The notes: a model not told the origin generated them from the letters alone. DNA of 64,000 bases from an uncultured virus (IMG/VR IMGVR_UViG_3300027278_000010) (IMGVR_UViG_3300027278_000010), one strand, 5' to 3'; shown: positions 37,835 to 55,438, counted from the stretch's first letter. Translations and numbers: made by a program.

Positions 37835-39064
37835 TTAGATAGGTGCAACGGTTTTGGCCAGAGCGATACGCTCAGGACGTTTGACCAGGATACCGTAGTA
37901 CCACTTGATCGAACTGAAACCAGTTTCACCGTATGGATCGTTGCGGTCGGCAGTTTCCTTGCCAGGCATTTTGGTCATGACGGAGAACTTCACGGTTTTA
38001 CCATCGGTTTGGAAACCGATAGTGGTGAAGCTGTCATCACCGATAACCAGCATCGGGAACACGTCGTAGTGCTCAGCACCACCGCTCATCGAAGAACGGA
38101 AGCCAGGGTTGTCATCGACTTCAGCACCAGCACCGGCCCAGTGCAGCATCTCAGGCACTTGGATGATACGGAACTTGTCGATGGAACCGATCTCACCGTT
38201 CATCACAGTACCGGCATCGGCGTAGTGCTGAATTTCGATGAACGCTTTGTTGTCGAAAAGGTCTTTCATGCCTTTCAGCATTGGGACGATCTCGGAACCA
38301 ACGTACATCACGCGAGTGGCACCAATTACCTTGGTGTCAACATTGCGGGAACCAGTGATGATACGGGTCTGCACCGGGCAACGGTTGTCGGTCAGGATTT
38401 GATCCAGACGCATCAGGTTTTTGTAGCTGATGATCGAAGCCGGAATTTCCGGGATACCACCGTTAGCCGGGGTCACTTCACCAGTGATCTCGCTGTTCTG
38501 GGTGGCAGCACCAGCAAACAGAACAACACCAGCCGCAGCCAGCAGGTCTTTTTGTAGTACAGCTTCGGTCAGTTGAACGGCACCGGTCAGCAGCTCACGA
38601 GCCAGGTGATCCTTCAGCATGTCATCCGAATCGAAGTCCATCGACTCTTGGGTGAACTCGGTGAAGAAACCGAACTTGTGAATCGAGCCTTCACGTTGCA
38701 GACGAGTGAAACCAACACGGTTCACACGACCACCGTTCTCGGTCAGGGTCGGCAGCTTGGAGGTGATAGCACCAACGTCTTTCGAGGAACCATAGAGGTT
38801 ACCGTTGACGATGGTGACACCGTTGGCGTCGATACCTTGGTCGTTGATGTTGCGCTCATCCAGCAGAGGCACGTACTCAAAAACCTTGATGCTTTTACCG
38901 AAGTGCTTCGGCATGTTGGTTACGCTGGCGAGCGGCATGAAATACTGCTCTTTGCGCGATTCGATGATCGCTTTCTTCAGCCAGAAGAAAGTATTCATCT
39001 GGTCCGAGTTGGCACCATCAATCGAAGACTTTTGCCCGTCAGCGGGGGCGTTGTAGTTCAGCAT
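37835..39064 (-). CDS. Major capsid protein (N4 gp56 family)
   Basis: [45 protein letters not shown]. Confidence 0.95.
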
Positions 39065-40620: not shown

Positions 40621-42840
40621 TTAATTGATTACAGGTTGTGGGGCGGAGGGTACACCAGGTTCTACATTACTTGGAAGTCCGCCTTGTTCTTCAAGTGTAT
40701 CACTAAGTTGGTTGAAGCCAACAGCCGCAGAAATATCAGGGGCTGATTCGCCTTCTTTACGTGGGGCAGTCAGTGCCTTAGTAATCTGAAGGTCTTGGTT
40801 ACCCTTGGCTTGGCCTTTTTGTTTTTCCATTTCACGGGCATGTTTAGTGCCTGTTTCCTGTTCAACGTAATCCAAATCTTTGATGTCTTTTTCAGCCAAA
40901 GTAAGTTTGGCTTTTGCATCGTTGACCATGATTTCAGAACGTAGTTTCTCGTTCTCAAGCTCAGCTTTTTCAATGGCCAATTCTTGCAGACGAATCTGCT
41001 CTGGGCTTGGTTTAGGTGCCCAACGACGAAGCTTCTCAGCCAACTCAGGCATACGCTTCAAGTCAGCAATCTCAGCCAGAATCATCATCACAACACTTGG
41101 GTCATGGTTCGGGCCGATTGTCTGAAGCATGAATGCCAAGTCTTTTGCTTTGGCGTCATCAACTTCAGCAGTTGAGATATCGGTCTCAAGATCGAAGTTA
41201 CCGATCAGGTCTTCCCGTTTTACCTCAATGAACTCTTTGTTCGTAATGCGGATGATTTCAACTTCAGACAGGAACACGCCGTTCATGGCGATGATCTTGT
41301 TACCAATCTCCGTCATGCCTTTTGCAAGACGACGCAGAATAGCCATTTCACGTTTAGATGCGGCATCCAGAACACCCCGGATACCTGCCGCCACATCCCC
41401 ATAAGCTTCCCCGCTGATGCCACCACCAAAGGATTTAACCCCGGTGAGTGCTTCTGCTTCTTGGTTCTGAAGGTTCAACATCAACAGTCCAGACTGAGGC
41501 AGCTCAGGGTACTTGTGCTCAATGACGCCCTGCTGTGGATGCACGTTAGGGTTGAACTCGTAGTCTTCGCCATTCTCATAACGACGACGGTTCAAGGCAT
41601 CCAGCATGCCTTTGGCAATGCCTTGTTGGCTATTTGCCGAACGACCAAGAAGGTCAATCATCCCACGGGTAACAGCACCCAGAATTTTCTGGTTGTCTTC
41701 CAGCAATTCTGCGTCAGGCTCACCGTAAAGATTCCGCTTAACCGGGAGGTATGGAACCAACACGAAAGGAAGTTTGCCGTCCGGGAACGGGTTTTCTTCC
41801 ATACGAATTGGCACATCACCAATCCAAGTAGCAACGATTGGGGTCAGAGTGCCGTCACCGTTGATATCCTGAAAACCCCAGTATTCGTAAGCCACAACCT
41901 TTTTCCGAAGGGAGTCGCTGAACTGGTAGCTATCTGGTGTGCTTGTGGAGTGGTCAGGCTGAGCCAATGGGGCATTGCCTTCCCAGTTCACTGCATCCAG
42001 GTTTTTGTAACGCTCAGGTTCCTTGAGCAATTCAGCTTTGTTTGTCTCAAAGGACACGATCACAAACAGAGCTTTACTCAGATCACCGTTACAGGACGGG
42101 TCGATGATTACGTTCTGTGGGTCCAGCAGATCGACAACTGGTTGGTTGATCAAGACTTTTTCAGTCTGGACTTCTTCTTCACCAACCTGAACGGCATAAG
42201 TTACTTGCTCAGTTTCCAGGTAAAGATCAATCGCAGCTTTCACTTCCTTGGGAACAACTTCCTCGTATTCACGAGGATTCTGCCCACGCAGGTCCATGGC
42301 AGCTTGGAAGACTTCAATCTGGCTTTCGTCTTGGATCGGCAGGAACTCGTATGTCGGTGCCATTTCCGTGATTGGAACGGTCACCCGTTTCCAGCCAACA
42401 CGAGTGATCGAAGTACCTTCGTCAACAGTGGCACGAACAAAGTTATCGACAAACTGCACCCGGTTCATCTTCGTGCGGAATTGCCAGTTCAAAACCAACT
42501 CATTCTGTACAGAAGCAGGACCGTCTTCAAAGGTAACCGGAGACACTTTGAAGAGTTTGTTGGTTCCCAAGAATGGTTCTGTCAGTGCTGCATAACGCCA
42601 CTCAGCCTGACGACGAATGAGTTTGGGCTGAACACTGGAACGACCGCTCGCCTTCTTTGGTTTGGCAGAGCCACGCACAGCCATGAGATCAGACCAACGT
42701 GTGATGTTGGACATCTGGCTTTGGTGAGCTGGACGTGCGTTTTCCAAATCCTGTTTGAGAGAGCGAATATCCGGCTCGATCTCCCAATCAGTCAAACGCG
42801 AAATGCCACGAGCATCCGGCTGGTTCTTGTCTTGTTCCAT
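40621..42840 (-). CDS. Portal protein
   Basis: [43 protein letters not shown]; likely ATG 42840. Confidence 0.93.
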
Positions 42841-42848
42841 GTCAGGTC

Positions 42849-43358
42849 TCATTCATTAAGTAATTTACGGTCAGCAAGTAGTTGGTTACCCAACTCAATC
42901 AATTGCCGTTCACGGAGTCTAAGAGTGTCCCGGAGTTCTGCAACCAGTGATCGGCCTTCTTCAAGAGATTGGTCGAGTCGGGCTGCATGGCTTGCAAGGT
43001 TGTCTCGCTCAGCTTCGGTGCCTTGGGCTTGACGTTTGTAGGCAGATTCTCTACCGGCGCTGAGCAACAACCGCTTAGCAAAACCAGCCCGCTGCTCAGA
43101 AAGAGCAAGGTCATAATCGTTTTTCGCTTTAGCAAGCTCATCGTTAATCCTTGTAGTCGTTTCAATGTGAACCAATTGGTCTTTGGCAATTTGGTCTTTC
43201 AGCTTATCAATCTGCTCTTTATGGGCAATTTTTTCTTTGTCCCATTCTCGCTGAATCTCTGCTTTTCCAGAGGAGATACCTTCAGAGTACACCCCATAGA
43301 AGATTGCCGAGACAAGAGCAACAAAAGCCAGTGCAATTACCCAATTGACTATTTTCAC
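42849..43358 (-). CDS. Rz: i-spanin
   Basis: N-terminal TM segment then coiled coil; follows endolysin. Confidence 0.85.
42899..43141 (-). CDS. Rz1: o-spanin lipoprotein embedded in i-spanin gene
   Basis: AAGGA SD; MSLLKRK...LLSGC lipobox, Pro-rich mature part, alternate frame. Confidence 0.82.
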   Translation of the reverse strand: MSLLKRKTIMTLLFLSSGLVLLSGCCSAPVENLPTNVKPKAPKLSETTLQAMQPDSTNLLKKADHWLQNSGTLLDSVNGN

Positions 43359-44585: not shown

Positions 44586-46016
44586 TTACTCGATTGGTTC
44601 TGGTGAGAGGAGTTCTCTGTGTTGCAAACACAAAGCCAAAGCCTCAAGCACTTCCCCTTGCTCAAAACCATAAACCTCAAACCCATCTGGATTTTTAGTA
44701 AAGGCACCGTGCATGTCGGTGTCCTCAACAACTTGAAGTGGAACCAACGAAGTGACCAGACGGTGGATCACATAACGGGCTTTCACCAAGTCGTAGCCAG
44801 CCACTGCACAGAAGACTGCACCCTTCAAAGCAAGCCCAATGTCGTGAGCAGAGGGTGTTGTGTACTTCGGATCAAGGTAGCTGTCTTTTGGGAAAGGTGT
44901 GCCTTGTGTCCAGCCTGGTGGACGCCAGTCATTAGGAACACCTGGTGAGTCTGGATTCTCCACCATCCACCCATGCAACCAGTCAAAAAACCGAGTATTG
45001 ACGGCAACAATTTTAGCCATCAACTCCGGTGGGATTACGTTGTTGGTTAGTGTTGCCTCATACCAGGTGCGCCCCATCGAGTCGAATGCACGGTACTGCC
45101 AACCATCCCATGCTGGGTTACCGTCCGGACCATCCCAAACCCAAGTGTCGATCTCCCCGTTTTGCTCACAATCCCACAGAGCTTGCAGGTAAATGTGCAT
45201 CCATGGTCCAAAAATCTCATCAGGACTTCGGGCACGAAATTGCTCTTGCGCCTCCAACATGAAATCAATCATGCCTTCCAGTTTCTCCATGTCATTGGCA
45301 TGAATCCATGGGGTACCGCCCTGGTAACCAGCAACAATGGGACCACGGTACGGGAGCACAGAAAGACGATTACGAGGGCCATTCAGTTGGAGACCAAACG
45401 GTAAAGCACCAATGTAGCGGACAGGTTTCCGTGTCGCATTAGTAACTTCTACTGTCCCAATTTTCCAAGTATGGGCTGTCGGGTTTTTATCGGTCAGAAT
45501 CACTTTACGCAGTGAACCAGCAGAAGCAGTAACGGGAGTTCGTCCAGCTAAATAGGCAATGCTCAGTGTCTGTTCTTGGTCGTTTTCATCACCGTGAACA
45601 CCTTCGGCTCCATTGAACTGGAAGGCCAGAATTGCCCCGGAAGCAGGTGCCGTTGGTGGAGTGCCAACGTTTTCTTGGACCGTGTGTAGACTAAACTGGA
45701 CCCAAGACCACCCACGCTCTTTCACCTGGTTCTGTTGCGGACACGGTGCTGCCCACAACCAACCATCTGAGTCTTTGACAACAAACAGCATATCCGAGGT
45801 ACTTGTGTACATCAGCTTAGGCGGTTTGGTGATGTTGAATGCTGGGTTGATTTGATCGTAAGTGATACCAAATCCGGCTTGAGCATTCGGAATAGTGAAA
45901 CTCTGACACAACAACTGTCCACCAATGGCAGTTGCCTTATAACCCACGGTGATGTCTACCCCGTCATTGAAGTCGAAGTAGGTATTACCGGGCAACCAAA
46001 CGTTGTAGTTGGCCAT
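44586..46016 (-). CDS. Tail protein resembling C-terminal part of N4 gp65
   Basis: GALPF, YRGPIVAGYQ, WDGPDGN..WDGWQYRA, YGFEQGE motifs recalled from gp65-like proteins; AGGA SD. Confidence 0.7.
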   Translation of the reverse strand: MANYNVWLPGNTYFDFNDGVDITVGYKATAIGGQLLCQSFTIPNAQAGFGITYDQINPAFNITKPPKLMYTSTSDMLFVVKDSDGWLWAAPCPQQNQVKERGWSWVQFSLHTVQENVGTPPTAPASGAILAFQFNGAEGVHGDENDQEQTLSIAYLAGRTPVTASAGSLRKVILTDKNPTAHTWKIGTVEVTNATRKPVRYIGALPFGLQLNGPRNRLSVLPYRGPIVAGYQGGTPWIHANDMEKLEGMIDFMLEAQEQFRARSPDEIFGPWMHIYLQALWDCEQNGEIDTWVWDGPDGNPAWDGWQYRAFDSMGRTWYEATLTNNVIPPELMAKIVAVNTRFFDWLHGWMVENPDSPGVPNDWRPPGWTQGTPFPKDSYLDPKYTTPSAHDIGLALKGAVFCAVAGYDLVKARYVIHRLVTSLVPLQVVEDTDMHGAFTKNPDGFEVYGFEQGEVLEALALCLQHRELLSPEPIE

Positions 46017-46064
46017 GTGTTTATCCTGATAAGTTGAGGGGGCATCTAATGCCCCCTCTCTGTT

Positions 46065-49000
46065 TTACAGTGGCAGAGCGCTCGTAACCTTACGCAGACT
46101 GTTGTTCTTCAAAATGATACTCCCCACAACACCAGAGGTGGAGCAATCAAACGAGAACTGAAACTTGAAGTCAGCATACCGAATGGTTTCACCAGATTGG
46201 TAGGGTGGAACAGTAATGGCCGGTGCTCTCATATGGATGGTGCGATTGCCTACAGGCAAACGGATTTTGTCCATATCAGATGGTGGCCAGAAGAACAGAT
46301 GGTTACCAAAACTCTGTCGAACAGAGCCAAAGGTTTGGGCTGGTATGTTGGCAAAAGTTGACAGTGCCAAGTTGCACGACAGCATTTGCCCAACCAGATT
46401 CACCATCTTAATGTCGGCTTCAGCTAGTAAAGTGTTGCCAGCAGAGAAGACCGTGTTAGCCCGTGGATCACCTTGGTCAGGCGAGTTCCAGCCCCAGTTA
46501 TCCCAAGGTCCATGTTGGTCTCGTGGTACAGAGGTCACCACCACAAACGACTCGTTTTTGTTACCAGTGGCTGGGATATTGAGGTCAATTTTAATTGCCG
46601 GAACGCCCTCATCCGTCACAATAGAAACAGAAACAGTACCTGGGGCAAAGGTAGCATCGCCCATGTACTCAAGCACTTTGGGGTATTCACCAGCAAGGTC
46701 ACCCCACGTGTAGTTCATGAAGTTTGAGTAGTTGCCTCCAACACCAATCCCCATAACTTGGTTTTCGTCGTTGGTGGATTTCCACAGGTTCCAACAGTCC
46801 GGCAACACACCATGCTGATAACCAGCATGGTTACCTCCAGATAACAACGCATTACCCAGTCCAGTTGCCCAACCAATAGAACTCAGGTTGAACGAAACAG
46901 GAATAGTGGCTGTGGCTTTATAAGCCGTAAAAGACAAACTGCTGTTTGGAATGATGTTTGGTCCAAGAGTCAAAGAACCAAGTTGAGTACGGCTAGGGCG
47001 GGCTGGAACTCCTGCCTCGACCATAACTTCAGCCAGTTTTCTGCCCATCACGTATGCCCCAATTGGTCCGGGGTGCAGACCGTCATGACAAGCAACATGT
47101 CCTGGAAACTCAGGGCTGTAATTACCCAAAGTGTAAGTGCCCAGTGGATTTACGTCATCCGACACCATGCCAAAAGGGTCAATCCCATTCGGACCAAGAA
47201 GGTCTTCTGTTGCATCCACAAGCCAGATATTCGGGTGTGTACCTGATGCTACCCACGAACGCAGACCTTCGTTGACGTCTTCAAGACGTGCCCGAATAGT
47301 GTCCATTTCGCTGATGCTATAGCCCTTCAGCAAATCCCGAGTACGTGGGCAGATCGCCATGAGAAATACCCATTTGCCTCTGCTCGCTAAGTCAGTAGCA
47401 GCCCGTTTGATGTTGAACAAAACTTCAGGAGCAGGAATGTTCCCCGAAAGGTCGTTAGTACCCCCCATCATGACAACAACATCAAAACGACTGATGTTGT
47501 TCAAGGCAGCGTACATTGGGCCTTGCCAAAGCACACCATCGCCCAGTGTGTCATCACTTTCCTCCCACCAATTGACAACCCGTGTACCTGCAATTGCAAA
47601 GTTCAAACCATGCTTTTGTCCCTGAACGTCTGTGGTAATGCCTGGTTCAAAGGACAAACGACCATCCAAGATATGGTCTGCATGTGTCCAGTAACCACAC
47701 ACACCAGATCCCCAGTTTTCATACATACCAGTGTTCCCTTTAGGGGGAATGTATGCGGTGTTGTAGTGTGTGATTGAGTCACCAACCATGGCCAGGCGAC
47801 GGCCTGGAAAAGGTACAGCAGCATATTCTGGAAGAGTGCTACCGTCGTCTTCCCAATCACCAGATTGAGTGCCATCTGCATCGCCTGGGCTTTGCTGAAA
47901 CTGATAGAACTGACCAACACCCACATTCTGCGGAACACTGTCAGGACCAATCAGTAAAATCGTTTCGTATACCTGCTCATCCTCACCACTAATAGCCATA
48001 GACACTGTTTGGTTAATGGTGGACTTCATGTCCACAGCAAACTGTGAATTGGCTGTGTAGTCGATATAGACAGGGTTGTTTTCAAAAGCAACACCGTAGC
48101 GAATAGGCAATCCACTACCTACTTCAGCAGACTCATTCTGCATAGTGAACGCAACATACCCATCTTGAGAACGTTCAGCCACATAGCGTGAAGTAGGGGG
48201 CACCGCATTCCAATTGGTGGCCGGATCGTCGATGTCATCACGACCATAGGCATAGCCATAGGTCAATGGGAAATTATTGTAAGGCCCGTCTGCTCCTGCC
48301 TGGAAAATGCGAGTGTTGTTCGACTCTTGATCACAGGTTTGAATCCAGACTTCCATCATGCGATCAAAAGCATTCCGCCAATCAGGGTTGTTTGGCTCCA
48401 TCTCCATACCCAAGGAGAAAGCATCAAGGAACCAGTGAATAGCATCAGCCGCCGTGGACACCTCGTTATCTGCCAGCTTACGCCACATTGGCCAAGCCTC
48501 GTACAGATCACCGTAAGGCACCATCACGTCTACAACAGTGGTGCAGTAGTTCACACCACAGACGGTATTCGCGTTTGTAGTGAGGACAATTTTACCTGGA
48601 GCACCGTCGTTATGTTGGCCAGCTGGAATAGCAGGTTGACCAAAGGAACCACCTTTCTGGGTGCCAAAGATCTTGTTGCCACCGGCGTCGATGTAATACT
48701 CGACATCGTACTGAACCCCAGTTTCCAAATCAGAAAACACGTTCAACCAAACAAACGTAGATTCCGGGCTGACCACCTGATAAACAATGTCAGGTGCGGG
48801 GTTCAGTTGACCAACTCCAGCCGTGAAGGTCACAGAAGATTGGGTGTCACGACCGTAGATATAGCCACTGAGTGCCAAGTCTCCAGAAGACTGCAATGGG
48901 CCACGGACATTGAAAGCTGCCCCACCATTACAAATCCATGAGTGATGCCAGCCTTGACCAGTTTCATCTGTGGGACGTTCCCCACGGAAAAAGAACTGGC

Positions 49001-49208
49001 AAGCAGCATCAAAAAGAAAGTGGCAGAAGTCTGCTTTAGCACTGTCACCTGTGGCAATGGCAGCACGAGCCATACCACGAAGCATCAACGAGACACCTTC
49101 AGAAGACGCAGTGCCCAAAGGGGTGTAACCCCCAAGAGCACCTTGGTCCGGCATCATGTTGTTCAGTACCAAGCCTTGCTCTGTAATTAGAGGAGGCAAA
49201 GTAGCCAT
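46065..49208 (-). CDS. Tail protein: GH8-like N-terminal region plus SGNH esterase
   Basis: SSEGVSLML and STAADAIHWFL resemble GH8 motifs; GDS, NFAIAG, GTND, DGLHP SGNH blocks. Confidence 0.8.
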   Translation of the reverse strand: MATLPPLITEQGLVLNNMMPDQGALGGYTPLGTASSEGVSLMLRGMARAAIATGDSAKADFCHFLFDAACQFFFRGERPTDETGQGWHHSWICNGGAAFNVRGPLQSSGDLALSGYIYGRDTQSSVTFTAGVGQLNPAPDIVYQVVSPESTFVWLNVFSDLETGVQYDVEYYIDAGGNKIFGTQKGGSFGQPAIPAGQHNDGAPGKIVLTTNANTVCGVNYCTTVVDVMVPYGDLYEAWPMWRKLADNEVSTAADAIHWFLDAFSLGMEMEPNNPDWRNAFDRMMEVWIQTCDQESNNTRIFQAGADGPYNNFPLTYGYAYGRDDIDDPATNWNAVPPTSRYVAERSQDGYVAFTMQNESAEVGSGLPIRYGVAFENNPVYIDYTANSQFAVDMKSTINQTVSMAISGEDEQVYETILLIGPDSVPQNVGVGQFYQFQQSPGDADGTQSGDWEDDGSTLPEYAAVPFPGRRLAMVGDSITHYNTAYIPPKGNTGMYENWGSGVCGYWTHADHILDGRLSFEPGITTDVQGQKHGLNFAIAGTRVVNWWEESDDTLGDGVLWQGPMYAALNNISRFDVVVMMGGTNDLSGNIPAPEVLFNIKRAATDLASRGKWVFLMAICPRTRDLLKGYSISEMDTIRARLEDVNEGLRSWVASGTHPNIWLVDATEDLLGPNGIDPFGMVSDDVNPLGTYTLGNYSPEFPGHVACHDGLHPGPIGAYVMGRKLAEVMVEAGVPARPSRTQLGSLTLGPNIIPNSSLSFTAYKATATIPVSFNLSSIGWATGLGNALLSGGNHAGYQHGVLPDCWNLWKSTNDENQVMGIGVGGNYSNFMNYTWGDLAGEYPKVLEYMGDATFAPGTVSVSIVTDEGVPAIKIDLNIPATGNKNESFVVVTSVPRDQHGPWDNWGWNSPDQGDPRANTVFSAGNTLLAEADIKMVNLVGQMLSCNLALSTFANIPAQTFGSVRQSFGNHLFFWPPSDMDKIRLPVGNRTIHMRAPAITVPPYQSGETIRYADFKFQFSFDCSTSGVVGSIILKNNSLRKVTSALPL

Positions 49209-50547: not shown

Positions 50548-53500
50548 TCAGCTCTCAAGTTCGTTTGAAGAAGAATCCAGTAAAGGATTCTCTGAACTGT
50601 CCAATAAGACGTTCGGGCCTGGACCCGGATTAGGTACAGGAGTTGGGTCGATGTTGTTGAATGGGAATGACCCAGTGATAACGGTCAACTGGGAGAAGTC
50701 GAGCGTGATTTCCACGTCGTTTGCTTCAATGTCATCAGACATTGTAAACAGTTGCAGTGCCAAGCGGTTAGCGCCACTCGGTGCAGTGATCTCAATGAAT
50801 AGAGTACCTTCCTCAACGCTATCACCTTGTGGCCCCATCACAACATTCAAGCCATCTGTGTAGTTGTTCCACGAAGTATCCGTGAACATGGCCATCATTC
50901 CTAACTGCCAAGCAGCATTCTCAACACCAACACCACCAAGCATGCCACCTGTATTCCAACGAACCTTGCACGCCAGTGAGTGTTTCTGCCCGGGGGTTAC
51001 AGCAAATACAGCAATGCGGCTGACCACAGACGTGTTACCTGTAACACCGATTGGTCGAATAATTCGTTGCCAATTGCCTGCTTCCGCAGGTAGCAATTGT
51101 CCAGTAAAACCAGTACCCAAGGTAAAGTTGTTGGATACACCACCAGAACCAGCAAACAAGGGGTTCGGCACCAAGTTACTACCACCAACTGCTGTTGGTA
51201 GTGGCAGTGTTCCATCTGTTGGAATGTCACCAAATGCCCCGCTATCAACGGCGTAACGTCCAAGTACAGTGTAACCGTAGTTACTAAAGTGCAGCCCATC
51301 CGGGTTCATGTAAGCCGGCTCTGCACGGTAAGAGCCAGATACCCGTAGTGCTTCAAACGCATCCACGAGGGGGATACCAGTGTCCCGGTGATACTGGCGA
51401 ATCATGTCGTTCCAAGAGGCAACGTTTGCGTCCTGCCCGCTCGTATCATTGCGTGGTGGAATAGTCCACAGAATTGGGTAAATTTTATTGGCTACAAGGA
51501 TGTCGCAGATCTCTTTGATCTGATTAACCCCACCAGTTCCTGAGTAGATGCTGTTAGTGCCAGAGGCAACCACACACGCTTTTGGGCGAGGACTCATTGC
51601 CAAAATTTGTGGCAGCTGTAGCTCCAATGCTTCTTGCACGGTACTGCCAGAAACAGCCTTGGTTCCCCGATAACGAAGACCGTGGTTACCGTAAAAGCAA
51701 GCCTTCACCAACCAACCGTTATTTAGGTAAACACCACCCTCAGTCAACGAATCACCTACAGCAGTTATGCCGTAAGCAGTGGGAGGCAAGTCAATAACAA
51801 TAGGGTCCACTTCTGGCTCTACAGGCACATCATCAGATGCAACTCCAGTAAGGGTAGCCGTCACCAACCCACCAACACCGAAGGCAACATTAAGTGTTGC
51901 TGGGAAACTGCCCTCAGCCGTTGGAGAGAAGACAACCGTCAACGTCATCACCCCATTGGCAGGCACGTTACCAATGTCAGGCGACACAGTATAACCAGCA
52001 CCAACAACCGAGGAGGTCACCGTTATTGCTTCATCGGTGCTGTTCTGTACTTCGATTGTCCGGTAATTCTCAGTGCCAGAAGCCACGGTTCCAAAAGGCA
52101 CTGTGTTTAGCGAAAGAGAAATCTCAGCTACAGGAATCGGAGTAATGAAAGGTTCCAGATATTCCAGCTTGAATGCCTGAGCCTCATGCCATTGACCAGC
52201 AGGCTGTTGGCCGACCAAGCCATCGGGGTCACCACCAGGGTTCCAGGCCCAGTAAGCAAAACTGATGTCATGCTCATCACAATAATCAGCCAGAGTGTCC
52301 ATCCACTCTTCGTCAAGTGCCAAGTTTTCAGCATCGTAGCCTGCACCCTGCCCTGTAATAGGGTCACCACCAACACGGAAATAGGAACCAAATTCACCAA
52401 TCCAAACAGGTGCGATACCCTCTTCAGCAAGGTAGCCCCACTGACGACGCCACACTTCTGCCATGTTTTGCGGGTAAGGCAGGCCAGCATACCCAGCACC
52501 GACACGGCCTTCAGGGTCAAACCACGGTTGCATCACCACACCGTCAAGGTAAGTGCCGTATTCGTGTGGAGAGTAGACAACCTTATTTGGGATGTTGAGT
52601 GTGACTAGAGCTGATCCAGCAGAATCCAGCTTACCGCTCCACCAAGTGCCCCAGTTGTATAGCCCCATCTGGCTTTCAGTATCACCTTCGTGACCTACCG
52701 GAGTGTGGTCCACGTTGCCAGTGACACCCTCGCAGATGATCAACACATCAGGGTTTACAGCGTGTACCGCTTTACCTGCACGCTCGAAATAACCAAGTAC
52801 ACCTGTCAAAGGATCACGATCCCACGTGCAGACGTGTGGTTCATTGATCATGTCAAAGCCACAGACCACAGGGCGATTCTTGTAGCGGTTTGCCAAGAAT
52901 ACGTGTGCAGCAATGGCCTGAGCCTCAGAACGAGGTTCCCGCTTCTGCCCAGCAGTTGCACCAACATCATCGGGATGGTTAGTGGTATACCACTTGCCGT
53001 TAGTGGCCAAGACGTTGCTGTCATCTGGGGCCAAGGTGTGCATGTCCAACACAATACGCAGACCAAGTGCCTCACACCAACCAACGAAAATGTCCATGAT
53101 TTCCATGGTCGTCTTGACGTTTTGTGGGTCTTCACCCGCCGTAGCATTCAAAAACTCAGGGTTCATCTGAGGATTGATATACGTGCTGTTCCAGTAACCA
53201 CTGCGGGTTTCTGGTTTGTAGCCGGGCCAAGTGCAGTCTTGGGAAAACAGAAGACGAATAGAGTTAAAGCCCAGTCGCTTTATCTCATCCAACATCCCCT
53301 CACGAAGAACTCCATTAACGACCTTGGTACGGAAAGGGCGAGTCCATGCCCCACCGGGAACGCCGGTTTGCTCAAACCCATACCAATTGATGGAACGTAG
53401 GCGAACAACCTCACCTGCTCCCTTCTGGTCTTTGAGCTTACCACCTACCGCAGTTAGGTAAGTAAGATCGCCTAACTCAGGTTCTGGATCAGGTGGCGGC

Positions 53501-53658
53501 ACTTCCTCACCAACACCGTAGCCAAGCAAAGGCACGTTGTGAGGACTGCTTGGTGCATTTGAGGTAAAGGACAACTGCCCATTACGCACACCAGCAGCAG
53601 TTGGTTTGAATAGGATCTTGAGTTGGTGTGAACCAAAAGGAGGAATAGTAATACTCAT
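50548..53658 (-). CDS. Tail enzyme: GH5 endoglucanase, Ig-like (ASH) domains and SGNH esterase
   Basis: INWYGFE, LDMH, NEPH (acid/base), YSPHEYG, WIGEFG (nucleophile), YWAWNP; GDS/GTN/DGLH. Confidence 0.9.
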   Translation of the reverse strand: MSITIPPFGSHQLKILFKPTAAGVRNGQLSFTSNAPSSPHNVPLLGYGVGEEVPPPDPEPELGDLTYLTAVGGKLKDQKGAGEVVRLRSINWYGFEQTGVPGGAWTRPFRTKVVNGVLREGMLDEIKRLGFNSIRLLFSQDCTWPGYKPETRSGYWNSTYINPQMNPEFLNATAGEDPQNVKTTMEIMDIFVGWCEALGLRIVLDMHTLAPDDSNVLATNGKWYTTNHPDDVGATAGQKREPRSEAQAIAAHVFLANRYKNRPVVCGFDMINEPHVCTWDRDPLTGVLGYFERAGKAVHAVNPDVLIICEGVTGNVDHTPVGHEGDTESQMGLYNWGTWWSGKLDSAGSALVTLNIPNKVVYSPHEYGTYLDGVVMQPWFDPEGRVGAGYAGLPYPQNMAEVWRRQWGYLAEEGIAPVWIGEFGSYFRVGGDPITGQGAGYDAENLALDEEWMDTLADYCDEHDISFAYWAWNPGGDPDGLVGQQPAGQWHEAQAFKLEYLEPFITPIPVAEISLSLNTVPFGTVASGTENYRTIEVQNSTDEAITVTSSVVGAGYTVSPDIGNVPANGVMTLTVVFSPTAEGSFPATLNVAFGVGGLVTATLTGVASDDVPVEPEVDPIVIDLPPTAYGITAVGDSLTEGGVYLNNGWLVKACFYGNHGLRYRGTKAVSGSTVQEALELQLPQILAMSPRPKACVVASGTNSIYSGTGGVNQIKEICDILVANKIYPILWTIPPRNDTSGQDANVASWNDMIRQYHRDTGIPLVDAFEALRVSGSYRAEPAYMNPDGLHFSNYGYTVLGRYAVDSGAFGDIPTDGTLPLPTAVGGSNLVPNPLFAGSGGVSNNFTLGTGFTGQLLPAEAGNWQRIIRPIGVTGNTSVVSRIAVFAVTPGQKHSLACKVRWNTGGMLGGVGVENAAWQLGMMAMFTDTSWNNYTDGLNVVMGPQGDSVEEGTLFIEITAPSGANRLALQLFTMSDDIEANDVEITLDFSQLTVITGSFPFNNIDPTPVPNPGPGPNVLLDSSENPLLDSSSNELES

Positions 53659-54308
53659 GGCACGATCTCAAAGTCACCAGTGATGGCGATGTTGTCGATA
53701 ATCAGGTCTTCGTTGCCTGCGTTTGTGATCGTGTACAGGAGCAGTTGCGACTCACCATCCACGTCTACACCATCCTCAAACTCAATTGAAGTGTTGGGCA
53801 AACTTACCGAAGGACCGTCGCTGATAATGGCCGGCTGAACAGATCGTTGTAAGAACCCCCACAGGTTTTCCAACATGGCAGTCACTGAGCCAACGTGATC
53901 CCATATACCTGTGCCCAGTAGACGGAACGTGTATCGCCCGCCTTGACCACAGTTGACGACCAGGTTGCCAACAAGCAAACCGAAAGTGCTTGGCACGAAC
54001 TTGACCAAGAGCGTAACGGTACGGCCTGGGTAGATGATTTCCGGAGCTGCGTTCACCAACTCGTAGTCAGCAGAGGGGACCAGGACACTCTGAACATGTA
54101 AAGGCTGAAAGCCTGTGTTTTCCAACACAAGTTCCATTGTCTTAGACAAACCCAGAACCAAACCACCGAAGGCCAGTGTGTTGCCCTTCAGTGAAGTCAG
54201 TTCGTAAGGGGGCTTGCCCTCAACCCAGAGTGGGATCTCTCGACTGGAGTGGTTGGTGAGTGGATTATCCCGAAGGTAATCCACTAGAGGCACAAATGGT
54301 TTCGTCAT
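53655..54308 (-). CDS. Ig-like (ASH-type) adaptor protein
   Basis: LAFG...LENTG..PL.V...F.P...G....L.G.G domain plus a half domain at the C-terminus. Confidence 0.8.
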   Translation of the reverse strand: MTKPFVPLVDYLRDNPLTNHSSREIPLWVEGKPPYELTSLKGNTLAFGGLVLGLSKTMELVLENTGFQPLHVQSVLVPSADYELVNAAPEIIYPGRTVTLLVKFVPSTFGLLVGNLVVNCGQGGRYTFRLLGTGIWDHVGSVTAMLENLWGFLQRSVQPAIISDGPSVSLPNTSIEFEDGVDVDGESQLLLYTITNAGNEDLIIDNIAITGDFEIVP

Positions 54309-54311
54309 GAC

Positions 54312-54737
54312 TTACATCCCGTAAGTGAGGAACCAACGAACAGACACACCTTGCAGTTCAGCCGGTGCCTGCATAGTCAGTGTTAGCTTCAGCTCACGTC
54401 CTTTGATGTGGGCCATGAAGTAACCAGAGTCAGCCGGGTAAAGGCCACCTTCGCCGTCATCCAGCATTACCATGCTGGAAGTAATCAGATCAGGGTTGAC
54501 CTGGGTAGGCATGGCAATCGAGGTGGTTTGCCCCGGAGCACCAGCCACACCAAATACTGTGGTGTTTGACTTGATGTCGGTGGCCACCTTGAACAGGGTA
54601 TCCATGTGCGTAGCCAGGTAGGCCAGCATCTGAAGGTTACGTGAGACAAGCAGAACTGTGTCGTAGGCAGTCCCGATCATCTTGTCTACCAAAGGGACAT
54701 TACCGCCCAATGGATCAGCACTTGGTCGAAAGCTCAT
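54312..54737 (-). CDS. Tail-appendage anchor (like the N-terminus of N4 gp66-type fibres)
   Basis: LVDKMIGTAYDTV..V..NL motif; TAATG overlap with upstream gene. Confidence 0.7.
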   Translation of the reverse strand: MSFRPSADPLGGNVPLVDKMIGTAYDTVLLVSRNLQMLAYLATHMDTLFKVATDIKSNTTVFGVAGAPGQTTSIAMPTQVNPDLITSSMVMLDDGEGGLYPADSGYFMAHIKGRELKLTLTMQAPAELQGVSVRWFLTYGM

Positions 54738-55438
54738 TAAATCCATCCTCGTTTTTCAAATCGTTGGTTTGTGGTTGATACAGTGGAACTCACCAGATCG
54801 TGTTCAACTACCTCACCACAGACACTTTCGTAAAACGCCAAGTGCTCTTGTGCTTTGTTGGTGGCTTCTGCTGTGTTGATGTGACTGTACACTTTATAGG
54901 CAATGTACGCAGTCAGTGCGCTTTCCAGAGTGTCTGGAATGAAAATGGGTTGGTCCATTTTCTCATGATCCAGCACATCATGCTTGGTCTGATACGCCAC
55001 GTTCAGTGCACTTCCAGCAATAGGCCGGGGAACCTGTAGCACTTTAGCTTGTGGCGTAAAGACCGAGTTCGGCTCGGCATCATTGTTCAACGGCAACCGA
55101 CAACCATACGTGTCATACACGGAAAGAATCCGAATTACCTCATCGGTAAACGGTTCCAACGGCATATCCAGTATGTAGGTCACCTTCTCTTCAACAGGCG
55201 TGTGGTGTTTAGCAAACCGAGGCAGAAGATGGTAGTTGGTGATGTGCTCGTGCATCTCGATCAGAACGTCTTTCTCACGCAGAGGAAAGCGGGAGTGCAA
55301 GCGAGTCAGCGCATCGTTTGCATAAAGAATGATCTTGGGTCGAGCACTTTCAATGATCGTCCCATTGCCTTCACCTGACATAGACAGGTTGGACAACTCA
55401 CCGTAGGACAGCTTTTTGTACAGTTCTTCAATGTTCAT
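54737..55438 (-). CDS. Head-tail adaptor (N4 gp67-like)
   Basis: LSYGELSNL, ALTRLHSRF, FEKRGWI; follows terminase. Confidence 0.85.
   Translation of the reverse strand: MNIEELYKKLSYGELSNLSMSGEGNGTIIESARPKIILYANDALTRLHSRFPLREKDVLIEMHEHITNYHLLPRFAKHHTPVEEKVTYILDMPLEPFTDEVIRILSVYDTYGCRLPLNNDAEPNSVFTPQAKVLQVPRPIAGSALNVAYQTKHDVLDHEKMDQPIFIPDTLESALTAYIAYKVYSHINTAEATNKAQEHLAFYESVCGEVVEHDLVSSTVSTTNQRFEKRGWI

Follow-up and report, generated by a model that had tools for sequence, protein, structure and literature searches.

A stretch of 64,000 nt of DNA from an uncultured virus (IMG/VR IMGVR_UViG_3300027278_000010; the whole stretch is called the window below) was analyzed around the junction of two genes, one for a putative 217-amino-acid (aa) anchor protein and one for a 1036-aa enzyme. 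Both genes stand on the minus strand; the gene order around them is terminase, 233-aa adaptor, 144-aa protein, 217-aa anchor, enzyme, further tail proteins (coordinates in Table 1). The 217-aa protein carries a conserved N-terminal segment (residues 1–35, with NHSSREIPLW), an intact immunoglobulin-like (Ig) domain of the ASH/PapD-like type (Ig1), a linker helix and, at its end, the first half of a second Ig domain (Ig2). The enzyme opens with the second half of an Ig domain, followed by a GH5 domain, an intact Ig domain, an SGNH esterase domain, a C-terminal domain of unknown family and an acidic/Ser-rich tail. An earlier reading made from the sequence alone (the original prediction) had described a single Ig domain cut in half across this junction, and had favored a natural connector that docks the enzyme over an indel artefact.

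The 217-aa open reading frame (ORF) ends in ...NAGNEDLIIDNIAITGDFEIVP followed by TGA (the same end written longer is ...ITNAGNEDLIIDNIAITGDFEIVP), and the enzyme ORF begins ATG-SITIPPFGSHQLKILFKPTAAGVRNGQLSFTSN...VPLLGYG (longer form, MSITIPPFGSHQLKILFKPTAAGVRNGQLSFTSN...VPLLGYG), the stop of the first and the start of the second sharing the four letters ATGA. Because the enzyme frame carries a TGA at the fourth codon before its ATG, any change of frame is confined to about 12 nt. No heptamer of the type X XXY YYZ was present in this 12-nt stretch open in both frames, TGAGATCGTGCC. The overlap probably reflects ordinary translational coupling rather than a special signal.

Intact copies of the domain were recognized in both proteins, PF22544 matching Ig1 (residues 42–134; 29.0 bits, cut-off 25.5) and PF15780 (ASH) matching the internal Ig of the enzyme (residues 518–591; 48.6 bits, cut-off 27). 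Residues 2–48 of the enzyme, searched within the whole protein, matched positions 63–111 of the 112 in Cep192_D4 and no others; the first 50 residues searched alone matched the same positions (E = 8.9e-8; 32.8 bits, below the cut-off of 35.5). The first half alone was barely visible to Pfam (DUF1573 at E = 0.14). By hhalign, the 57 C-terminal residues of the 217-aa protein were placed on columns 16–49 of the intact Ig1 profile (E = 8e-6) and the enzyme N-terminus on columns 62–82. The first half also aligned with the first half of the intact Ig2 of Erwinia phage phiEaP8. The original prediction was thus accurate in each detail checked: the first protein ends in a first half and the enzyme opens with a second (profile and hhalign matches), each protein holds an intact copy above cut-off, a stop lies four codons before the enzyme ATG, and the stretch open in both frames is free of a slippery heptamer.

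Scans of viral, metagenome and genome contigs yielded few loci. For the split form, DNA of four distinct lineages was available (upstream-protein identities in parentheses): the window itself (=G001), L003=L004=L009 (58%), L007=L008 (54%) and L006 (35%). IMG/VR record G001 was 100% identical over 1401 nt; it was taken to be the same virus and was not counted as independent support. Halves from the four lineages (8 rows) were added separately to an alignment of seven intact domains (phiEaP8 Ig2, Ea9-2 Ig2, a bacterial domain from L010, the enzyme Ig of two lineages, an extra Ig from L006, and Ig1). First halves were placed in columns 1–57 for three of the four lineages, the window row being stretched by the aligner to column 63, and second halves in columns 62–113 for three of the four, the L006 row being stretched to column 41. 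Columns 58–61 form a loop of variable length among intact domains, and the loop length summed over both halves equalled that of the intact domains. By this alignment the halves are exactly complementary, with no overlap, no gap and no residue missing or doubled, and their match to the intact domain exceeds chance. Twenty-five residues of the second half were invariant across the four lineages. The uncut motif was read in cellular multi-Ig proteins (...TGDFEIVPGSNTCAHTVPAST... in L010; ...SGDFEIIDGLSNNIAPGSKDT... in L016); these and L017 have intact domains and served only as a picture of the uncut domain. A profile of the first 60 residues of the enzyme matched 13,423 proteins at E<=0.001, and among the 150 matches listed all were multi-repeat proteins of 578–7256 aa with 5–55 matched stretches, the best stretch being internal in 150 of 150. 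Such a ranking by summed score swamps split relatives and is uninformative on the spread of the split.

The 217-aa protein matched 34 cluster representatives (42–100% identical, the window's own protein included), 28 of them 211–217 aa long and the other six shorter pieces. The end ...G[DE]FE[IL]VP was shared by 33 of the 34, the exception being a 142-aa fragment on a 917-bp contig, and when 17 representatives spanning the identity range were aligned, all 17 ended in the same column. At the DNA level the CCATGA junction was kept in 4/4 lineages despite nearby synonymous differences (GTG/GTA, ATC/ATA, TTT/TTC), and the downstream gene began M(S/TE)ITIPPFGS in each of them; short database proteins matching the first 60 residues of the enzyme likewise opened with MSITIPPFGS (4/4). 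Contigs of a run from a second study (X2) covered 53463–53796 with zero differences, and a possible source run gave a depth of 14.6. No fused close relative was found in a search limited to proteins of 381–2000 aa, which is weak evidence. Among 50,697 cultured-phage records, no match was obtained with the junction DNA (blastn) or with the first 60 residues of the enzyme (tblastn). Relatives therefore share the split (33/34 clusters and 4/4 DNA lineages), a check that the original prediction had asked for, and its preferred explanation of a natural split domain is supported by the same conservation. The split is almost certainly a natural and conserved fission.

Constraint was compared along both proteins. 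Between three full-length enzymes the half domain was 60–69% identical, the intact Ig 28–38% and GH5 73–79%. In the upstream protein, mean identity over 136 pairs was 57% for Ig1 and 66% for the half domain. By sequence identity, then, conservation is higher in the halves than in the intact Ig domains of the same proteins.

Structures were predicted with AlphaFold2 (AF2). From a 17-sequence alignment of the 217-aa protein, Ig1 was modeled with a predicted local distance difference test (pLDDT) score of 83–93 and the helix at residues 138–157 with a score of 87 falling to 67; the last 60 residues scored 39–59 and formed two short strands only. A single alignment thus folds Ig1 yet leaves the lone first half unfolded. 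The Ig1 model showed the PapD-like sandwich of seven to eight strands, and by Foldseek it was matched (prob 1.0) to CEP192 SPD-2, HYDIN PapD-like domains and the VesB Ig; for the split domain the fold is taken from the alignment. In a sequence search of the PDB with the 217-aa profile, all matches were Ig repeats of ciliary HYDIN/CFAP proteins, none of them a phage structure. Projected onto Ig1, the cut lies just behind the strand that corresponds to residues 82–84, and the strands corresponding to 97–104, 110–119 and 125–135 lie on the enzyme, so that about five strands would be on the 217-aa protein and about three on the enzyme. In the canonical topology of such sandwiches both sheets would mix strands of both chains.

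Homologues in cultured phages were found in other arrangements. The 217-aa protein matched nine of the 50,697 records. For two records of Erwinia phage phiEaP8 and for Erwinia phage Fifi051, a coding sequence annotated as cellulase or hydrolase covered the match; the gene itself was read only in phiEaP8, where it is a single ORF for a 727-aa 'cellulase' whose N-terminus is matched by the 217-aa protein. Residues 4–185 of this protein aligned to the 217-aa protein up to ...TGEF, inside the intact Ig2, and from residue 320 on it aligned to the enzyme from residue 5 through GH5. The homologue in Ea9-2-type phages (243 aa) has its Ig2 whole and comes with no enzyme, and a 784-aa ORF of Stenotrophomonas phage Philippe starts with the homologous region. 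A search with the GH5 domain returned 34 records, and in 7/7 of the phages examined (phiEaP8, Skulduggery, S6 (gp095), LASTA, Parlo, PEp14 and Hena1) GH5 formed the C-terminal part of one ORF of 619–926 aa, behind whole Ig domains and/or a GP4-gp77-type adaptor domain. Both window proteins matched the same family, phrog_18474, at profile positions 173–327 and 493–901, and when viral models were searched by structure with that of the 217-aa protein, six of the top ten hits were long GH5-type enzymes (727–926 aa). Both parts are thus conserved, adjacent and homologous to one chain elsewhere, as in a natural two-chain protein.

Since all seven GH5 tail enzymes examined in cultured phages are single ORFs, the split is probably a derived gene fission. 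On this unrooted comparison the simplest reading is that the fission is probably peculiar to this uncultured marine clade. The cut may have arisen by loss of one base at the wobble position of a Pro codon before an internal Met codon (CCN ATG A to CCATGA), which would at one stroke create the stop and free the internal Met as a start. Such an origin fits the observation that the two halves together have the loop length of intact domains.

The most likely mechanism is reassembly of the halves as a tether (probability of about 0.65). In other phages the protein is a single chain of virion anchor, two Ig domains and GH5 cellulase, and in this clade the break lies in the loop that follows the strand ...GDFEIVP. 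The anchor, Ig1, the helix and about five strands of Ig2 would go with the 217-aa product, and the enzyme would open with the remaining three or so. At the ATGA overlap a ribosome ending the first protein would start the second, so that the halves would be made together and in their original order. They would then rejoin non-covalently into one beta-sandwich, both sheets mixing strands of both proteins, and the rejoined Ig would tether the cellulase/esterase to the anchor and hence to the tail, to which the anchor is presumed to attach. Docking of the enzyme as proposed in the original prediction fits the exact complementarity of the halves, their conservation above that of the intact Ig domains and the existence of one-ORF homologues. 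The term 'strand complementation' used there understates this geometry, which is of about 5+3 strands with no single donated strand. The fission could be adaptive (separate folding, adjustable stoichiometry or exchangeable cassettes) or a neutral event that was tolerated.

Several observations weigh against this account. Overlaps of 4 nt (ATGA or GTGA) occur at 5 of the 21 junctions in the surrounding gene chain, so the overlap is common here and says little specific about coupling between these two genes. Within its own protein the first half (66%) is exceeded in mean identity by both the linker helix (74%) and the N-terminal segment (75%), and downstream genes are known for four lineages only. 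The direction, fission rather than fusion, is read from the distribution of forms in an unrooted comparison. In the AF2 model of the enzyme (6-sequence alignment), the half domain scored 59–72 against 73–90 for the intact Ig; this deserves little weight in a poor overall model (mean pLDDT 44, GH5 mostly below 50), and the contrast is suggestive at best.

It is unlikely, although an Ea9-2-type anchor with a whole Ig2 and no enzyme indicates that the anchor can exist alone, that the halves do not rejoin and are instead remnants or have other partners (the first half binding another tail protein, for example), with the enzyme attached elsewhere or free. The conserved C-terminal tail of the enzyme might serve as a separate docking peptide in that case. 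Both halves, however, are more constrained than the intact Ig domains and exactly complementary, they are adjacent and overlapping in 4/4 lineages, a lone half sandwich would be expected to expose its hydrophobic core, and the first half by itself is left unfolded by AF2.

Recoding, in which some ribosomes would shift by -1 at the junction and produce a low level of fused anchor–enzyme chain, is improbable. The two frames do differ by -1, and Fraser et al. 2006 reportedly described programmed frameshifts that join Ig-like domains to phage structural proteins. In L006 the junction reads C CCA TGA and a slip of the P-site tRNA-Pro is conceivable, in that lineage only; the base before CCA is G, A, A and C in the four lineages, so that a slip-prone site is not conserved. 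For the 120 nt surrounding the junction, the consensus fold was weak (-10.2 kcal/mol), with only a 4-bp stem downstream. Of the marks of a programmed -1 frameshift, neither the slippery heptamer, absent from the 12 nt open in both frames, nor a stable downstream RNA structure was thus found.

Pairing in trans between neighboring copies, giving a domain-swapped ring or chain around the tail in place of 1:1 heterodimers, is about as improbable. Collars with symmetry mismatch are a precedent among Schitoviridae tail fibers (phage DEV, in the available part of PMC11445570), and stoichiometry is not fixed by the present data; with one half per protein, however, a chain formed by this domain alone stops at the heterodimer.

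The indel alternative of the original prediction, a sequencing or assembly error in a true gene of about 1253 aa, is refuted: one base would restore a single frame and the halves abut exactly, but the stop position is kept in 33/34 related clusters down to 42% identity, the ATGA junction and half-domain start are common to 4/4 DNA lineages, which come from separate records, reach down to 35% identity and differ synonymously near the junction, the second-study contigs are identical, and longer relatives were not found in the size-restricted search.

Mosaic pairs were found among relatives of the 217-aa protein, with identities over N-terminus/Ig1/linker/half-Ig of 35/31/74/96% for P0033 against P0006 and of 95/100/74/46% for P0027 against P0019; P0013 has a front like that of P0003 and a rear like that of P0012. 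The breakpoints fall in the linker, and by these pairs the first half has been inherited apart from the anchor and Ig1. This suggests movement of the kind expected if the first half is exchanged together with the adjacent enzyme gene. The cargo behind the same half domain varies, being a 534-aa form with GH5 and the C-terminal tail only (P0190), the 1036-aa form, or a 1145-aa form with an extra Ig (L006). The linker helix is missing from phiEaP8, where it corresponds to a 26-residue alignment gap. A more tentative proposal is that the half-Ig pieces are a natural self-assembling plug and socket used by the clade as a module boundary. The first half and the helix would then travel with the enzyme cassette and recombine onto different anchor/Ig1 modules via the conserved helix, varied cargo would sit on the same plug, and the ATGA coupling would amount to effectively co-translational assembly in folding order.

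Several known systems were compared. In chaperone-usher pili (PapD/pilin), a pilin lacking one strand receives one donated strand. As there, an Ig-like sandwich incomplete in one chain would here be completed by another, and the fold is PapD-like/ASH; the cut here differs in lying mid-domain (about 5+3), with both sheets mixed and with no chaperone or exchange step. The acceptor does not lack its last strand only, and no single strand is donated. Split FN3 monobodies and split CnaB2 of the SpyCatcher type demonstrate that loop-cut Ig-type sandwiches can reassemble from two chains; these are laboratory constructs, whereas the window case is natural, conserved and encoded in overlapping genes.

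The closest phage counterparts are S6 gp095 and the phiEaP8 cellulase. They are alike in position (after terminase, adaptor and tailspike genes), in the order of parts (anchor segment with ..SSR.I.., Ig1, Ig2, GH5) and in GH5 (30–31% identical). Theirs is a single ORF with an intact Ig2, whereas the window clade cuts Ig2, has a conserved helix inserted between Ig1 and Ig2, and has Ig, SGNH and C-terminal domains added behind GH5. S6 gp095 is described as degrading a cellulose model substrate, with cellulose the first receptor of S6 (PMC9544554, in the part available). In Schitoviridae phage B2 an esterase spike is made from two gene products (gp48/gp49), and in Moo19 from one, gp82 (available part of PMC11654681). 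By its description the B2 spike is a G7C-like trimer and not an Ig string with GH5, and a cut inside a domain is not stated in the available part of that report. In the literature searched, no description was found of phage tail proteins with an Ig domain naturally split in its middle.

Further features of the enzyme and its surroundings were noted. Two catalytic Glu residues in NEP and GEF-type motifs mark the GH5 family, and the corresponding positions of the enzyme (N272-E273-P274 and G421-E422-F423) were invariant in 6/6 aligned sequences; its GH5 was 31.5% identical to that of S6 gp095. The SGNH domain contains the GDS block (GDSLTEGG). The C-terminal tail was also kept in 534-aa P0190, which is without the Ig, SGNH and C-terminal domains; the tail could be a docking or processing peptide. 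Residues 6–59 of the 144-aa protein directly upstream of the anchor were 44% identical to the N-terminus of a 362-aa phiEaP8 'tail-spike' and residues 37–142 matched its C-terminus, and the 144-aa N-terminus also matched that of the 869-aa exopolysaccharide depolymerase of Ea9-2. From these matches the protein resembles a tailspike of which little more than the two ends is left, and it is a possible platform for the anchor. Adaptors of 234 aa occur in the Schitoviridae phages Moo19 and B2, where tailspike N-termini bind the adaptor (PMC11654681, in the part available). The 217-aa/enzyme pair is predicted to act as a virion-borne cellulase/esterase that clears or binds host exopolysaccharide, tethered via the rebuilt Ig.

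The virion RNA polymerase, portal, capsid and TerL identity (75–83% to Schitoviridae phages, Zuri being confirmed as Schitoviridae) place the window among the Schitoviridae (N4-like), as a marine phage with a genome of roughly 76 kb. Elsewhere in the window, a 1047-aa ORF that carries an SGNH/lipase domain matched phrog_2871 ('tail protein') at positions 150–497, and the next ORF, of 476 aa, matched the same profile at positions 626–1042 (profile length 1456). The pair (44586..49208) may represent another tail-gene family that is spread across two adjacent genes.

Table 1. Positions of the split-domain genes, their parts and other features, counted from the first letter of the window (the L006 entry in its own record).
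Feature	Position	Strand	Basis or remark
217-aa anchor protein ORF	53655..54308	-	ORF call
1036-aa GH5 cellulase/SGNH esterase ORF	50548..53658	-	ORF call; phrog_18474 'hydrolase'
ATGA overlap (TGA of 217-aa ORF, ATG of enzyme ORF)	53655..53658	-	sequence
TGA in enzyme frame, fourth codon before enzyme ATG	53668..53670	-	sequence
First half of split Ig, residues 161–217 of 217-aa protein (roughly strands A to C')	53658..53828	-	alignments to intact domains
Second half of split Ig, residues 1–48 of enzyme (roughly strands D/E to G)	53515..53658	-	Pfam Cep192_D4, alignments
Linker helix, residues 138–157 of 217-aa protein (..MLxNLWGFLQRSVQPAI..)	53838..53897	-	conserved, between Ig1 and half domain
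Intact Ig1 (ASH/PapD-like), residues 36–135 of 217-aa protein		-	Pfam PF22544/PF22073 on residues 42–134
Intact ASH Ig in enzyme, residues 508–610	51829..52137	-	PF15780, residues 518–591; internal comparison
L006 1145-aa enzyme, extra intact Ig between half domain and GH5	L006 7648..11085		most distant split lineage
GH5 cellulase domain, residues 105–475	52234..53346	-	PF00150 109.3 bits, cut-off 23.5
SGNH/GDSL esterase domain, residues 633–797	51268..51762	-	PF13472 63.7 bits, cut-off 32.9
Acidic/Ser-rich C-terminal tail of enzyme, ...NVLLDSSENPLLDSSSNELES	50548..50640	-	kept in L009
144-aa minimal tailspike-like protein, directly upstream	54312..54746	-	matches to Erwinia-phage tailspikes
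233-aa head-tail adaptor/virion structural protein	54737..55438	-	phrog_2125 E 5e-83; weak PF24175 SU10 adaptor match
1047-aa ORF	46065..49208	-	phrog_2871
476-aa ORF	44586..46016	-	phrog_2871
Portal	40621..42852		
Major head protein	37835..39064		
Virion RNA polymerase, 3456 aa	21438..31808	-	phrog_2206, 2819 bits

Gene fission is already known to split proteins, and tail enzymes of phages that consist of two gene products are known as well. What is unusual here is that a small beta-sandwich is cut through at mid-domain and that the cut is kept while the anchor protein falls to 35% identity; it would be a natural counterpart of the laboratory split-Ig and split-FN3 systems. Should the halves bind tightly, they would provide a small natural tag pair without protein ligation, and if they do serve as a module boundary, the clade would be a source of natural split-Ig tags. 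For annotation, the case is a warning that a 'half domain' at the end of a gene in a phage tail module is not necessarily a frameshift error. For the phages themselves, the locus offers a concrete example of how a depolymerase may be attached to the tail, and the mosaic pattern suggests how receptor-degrading cassettes are swapped among marine N4-like phages.

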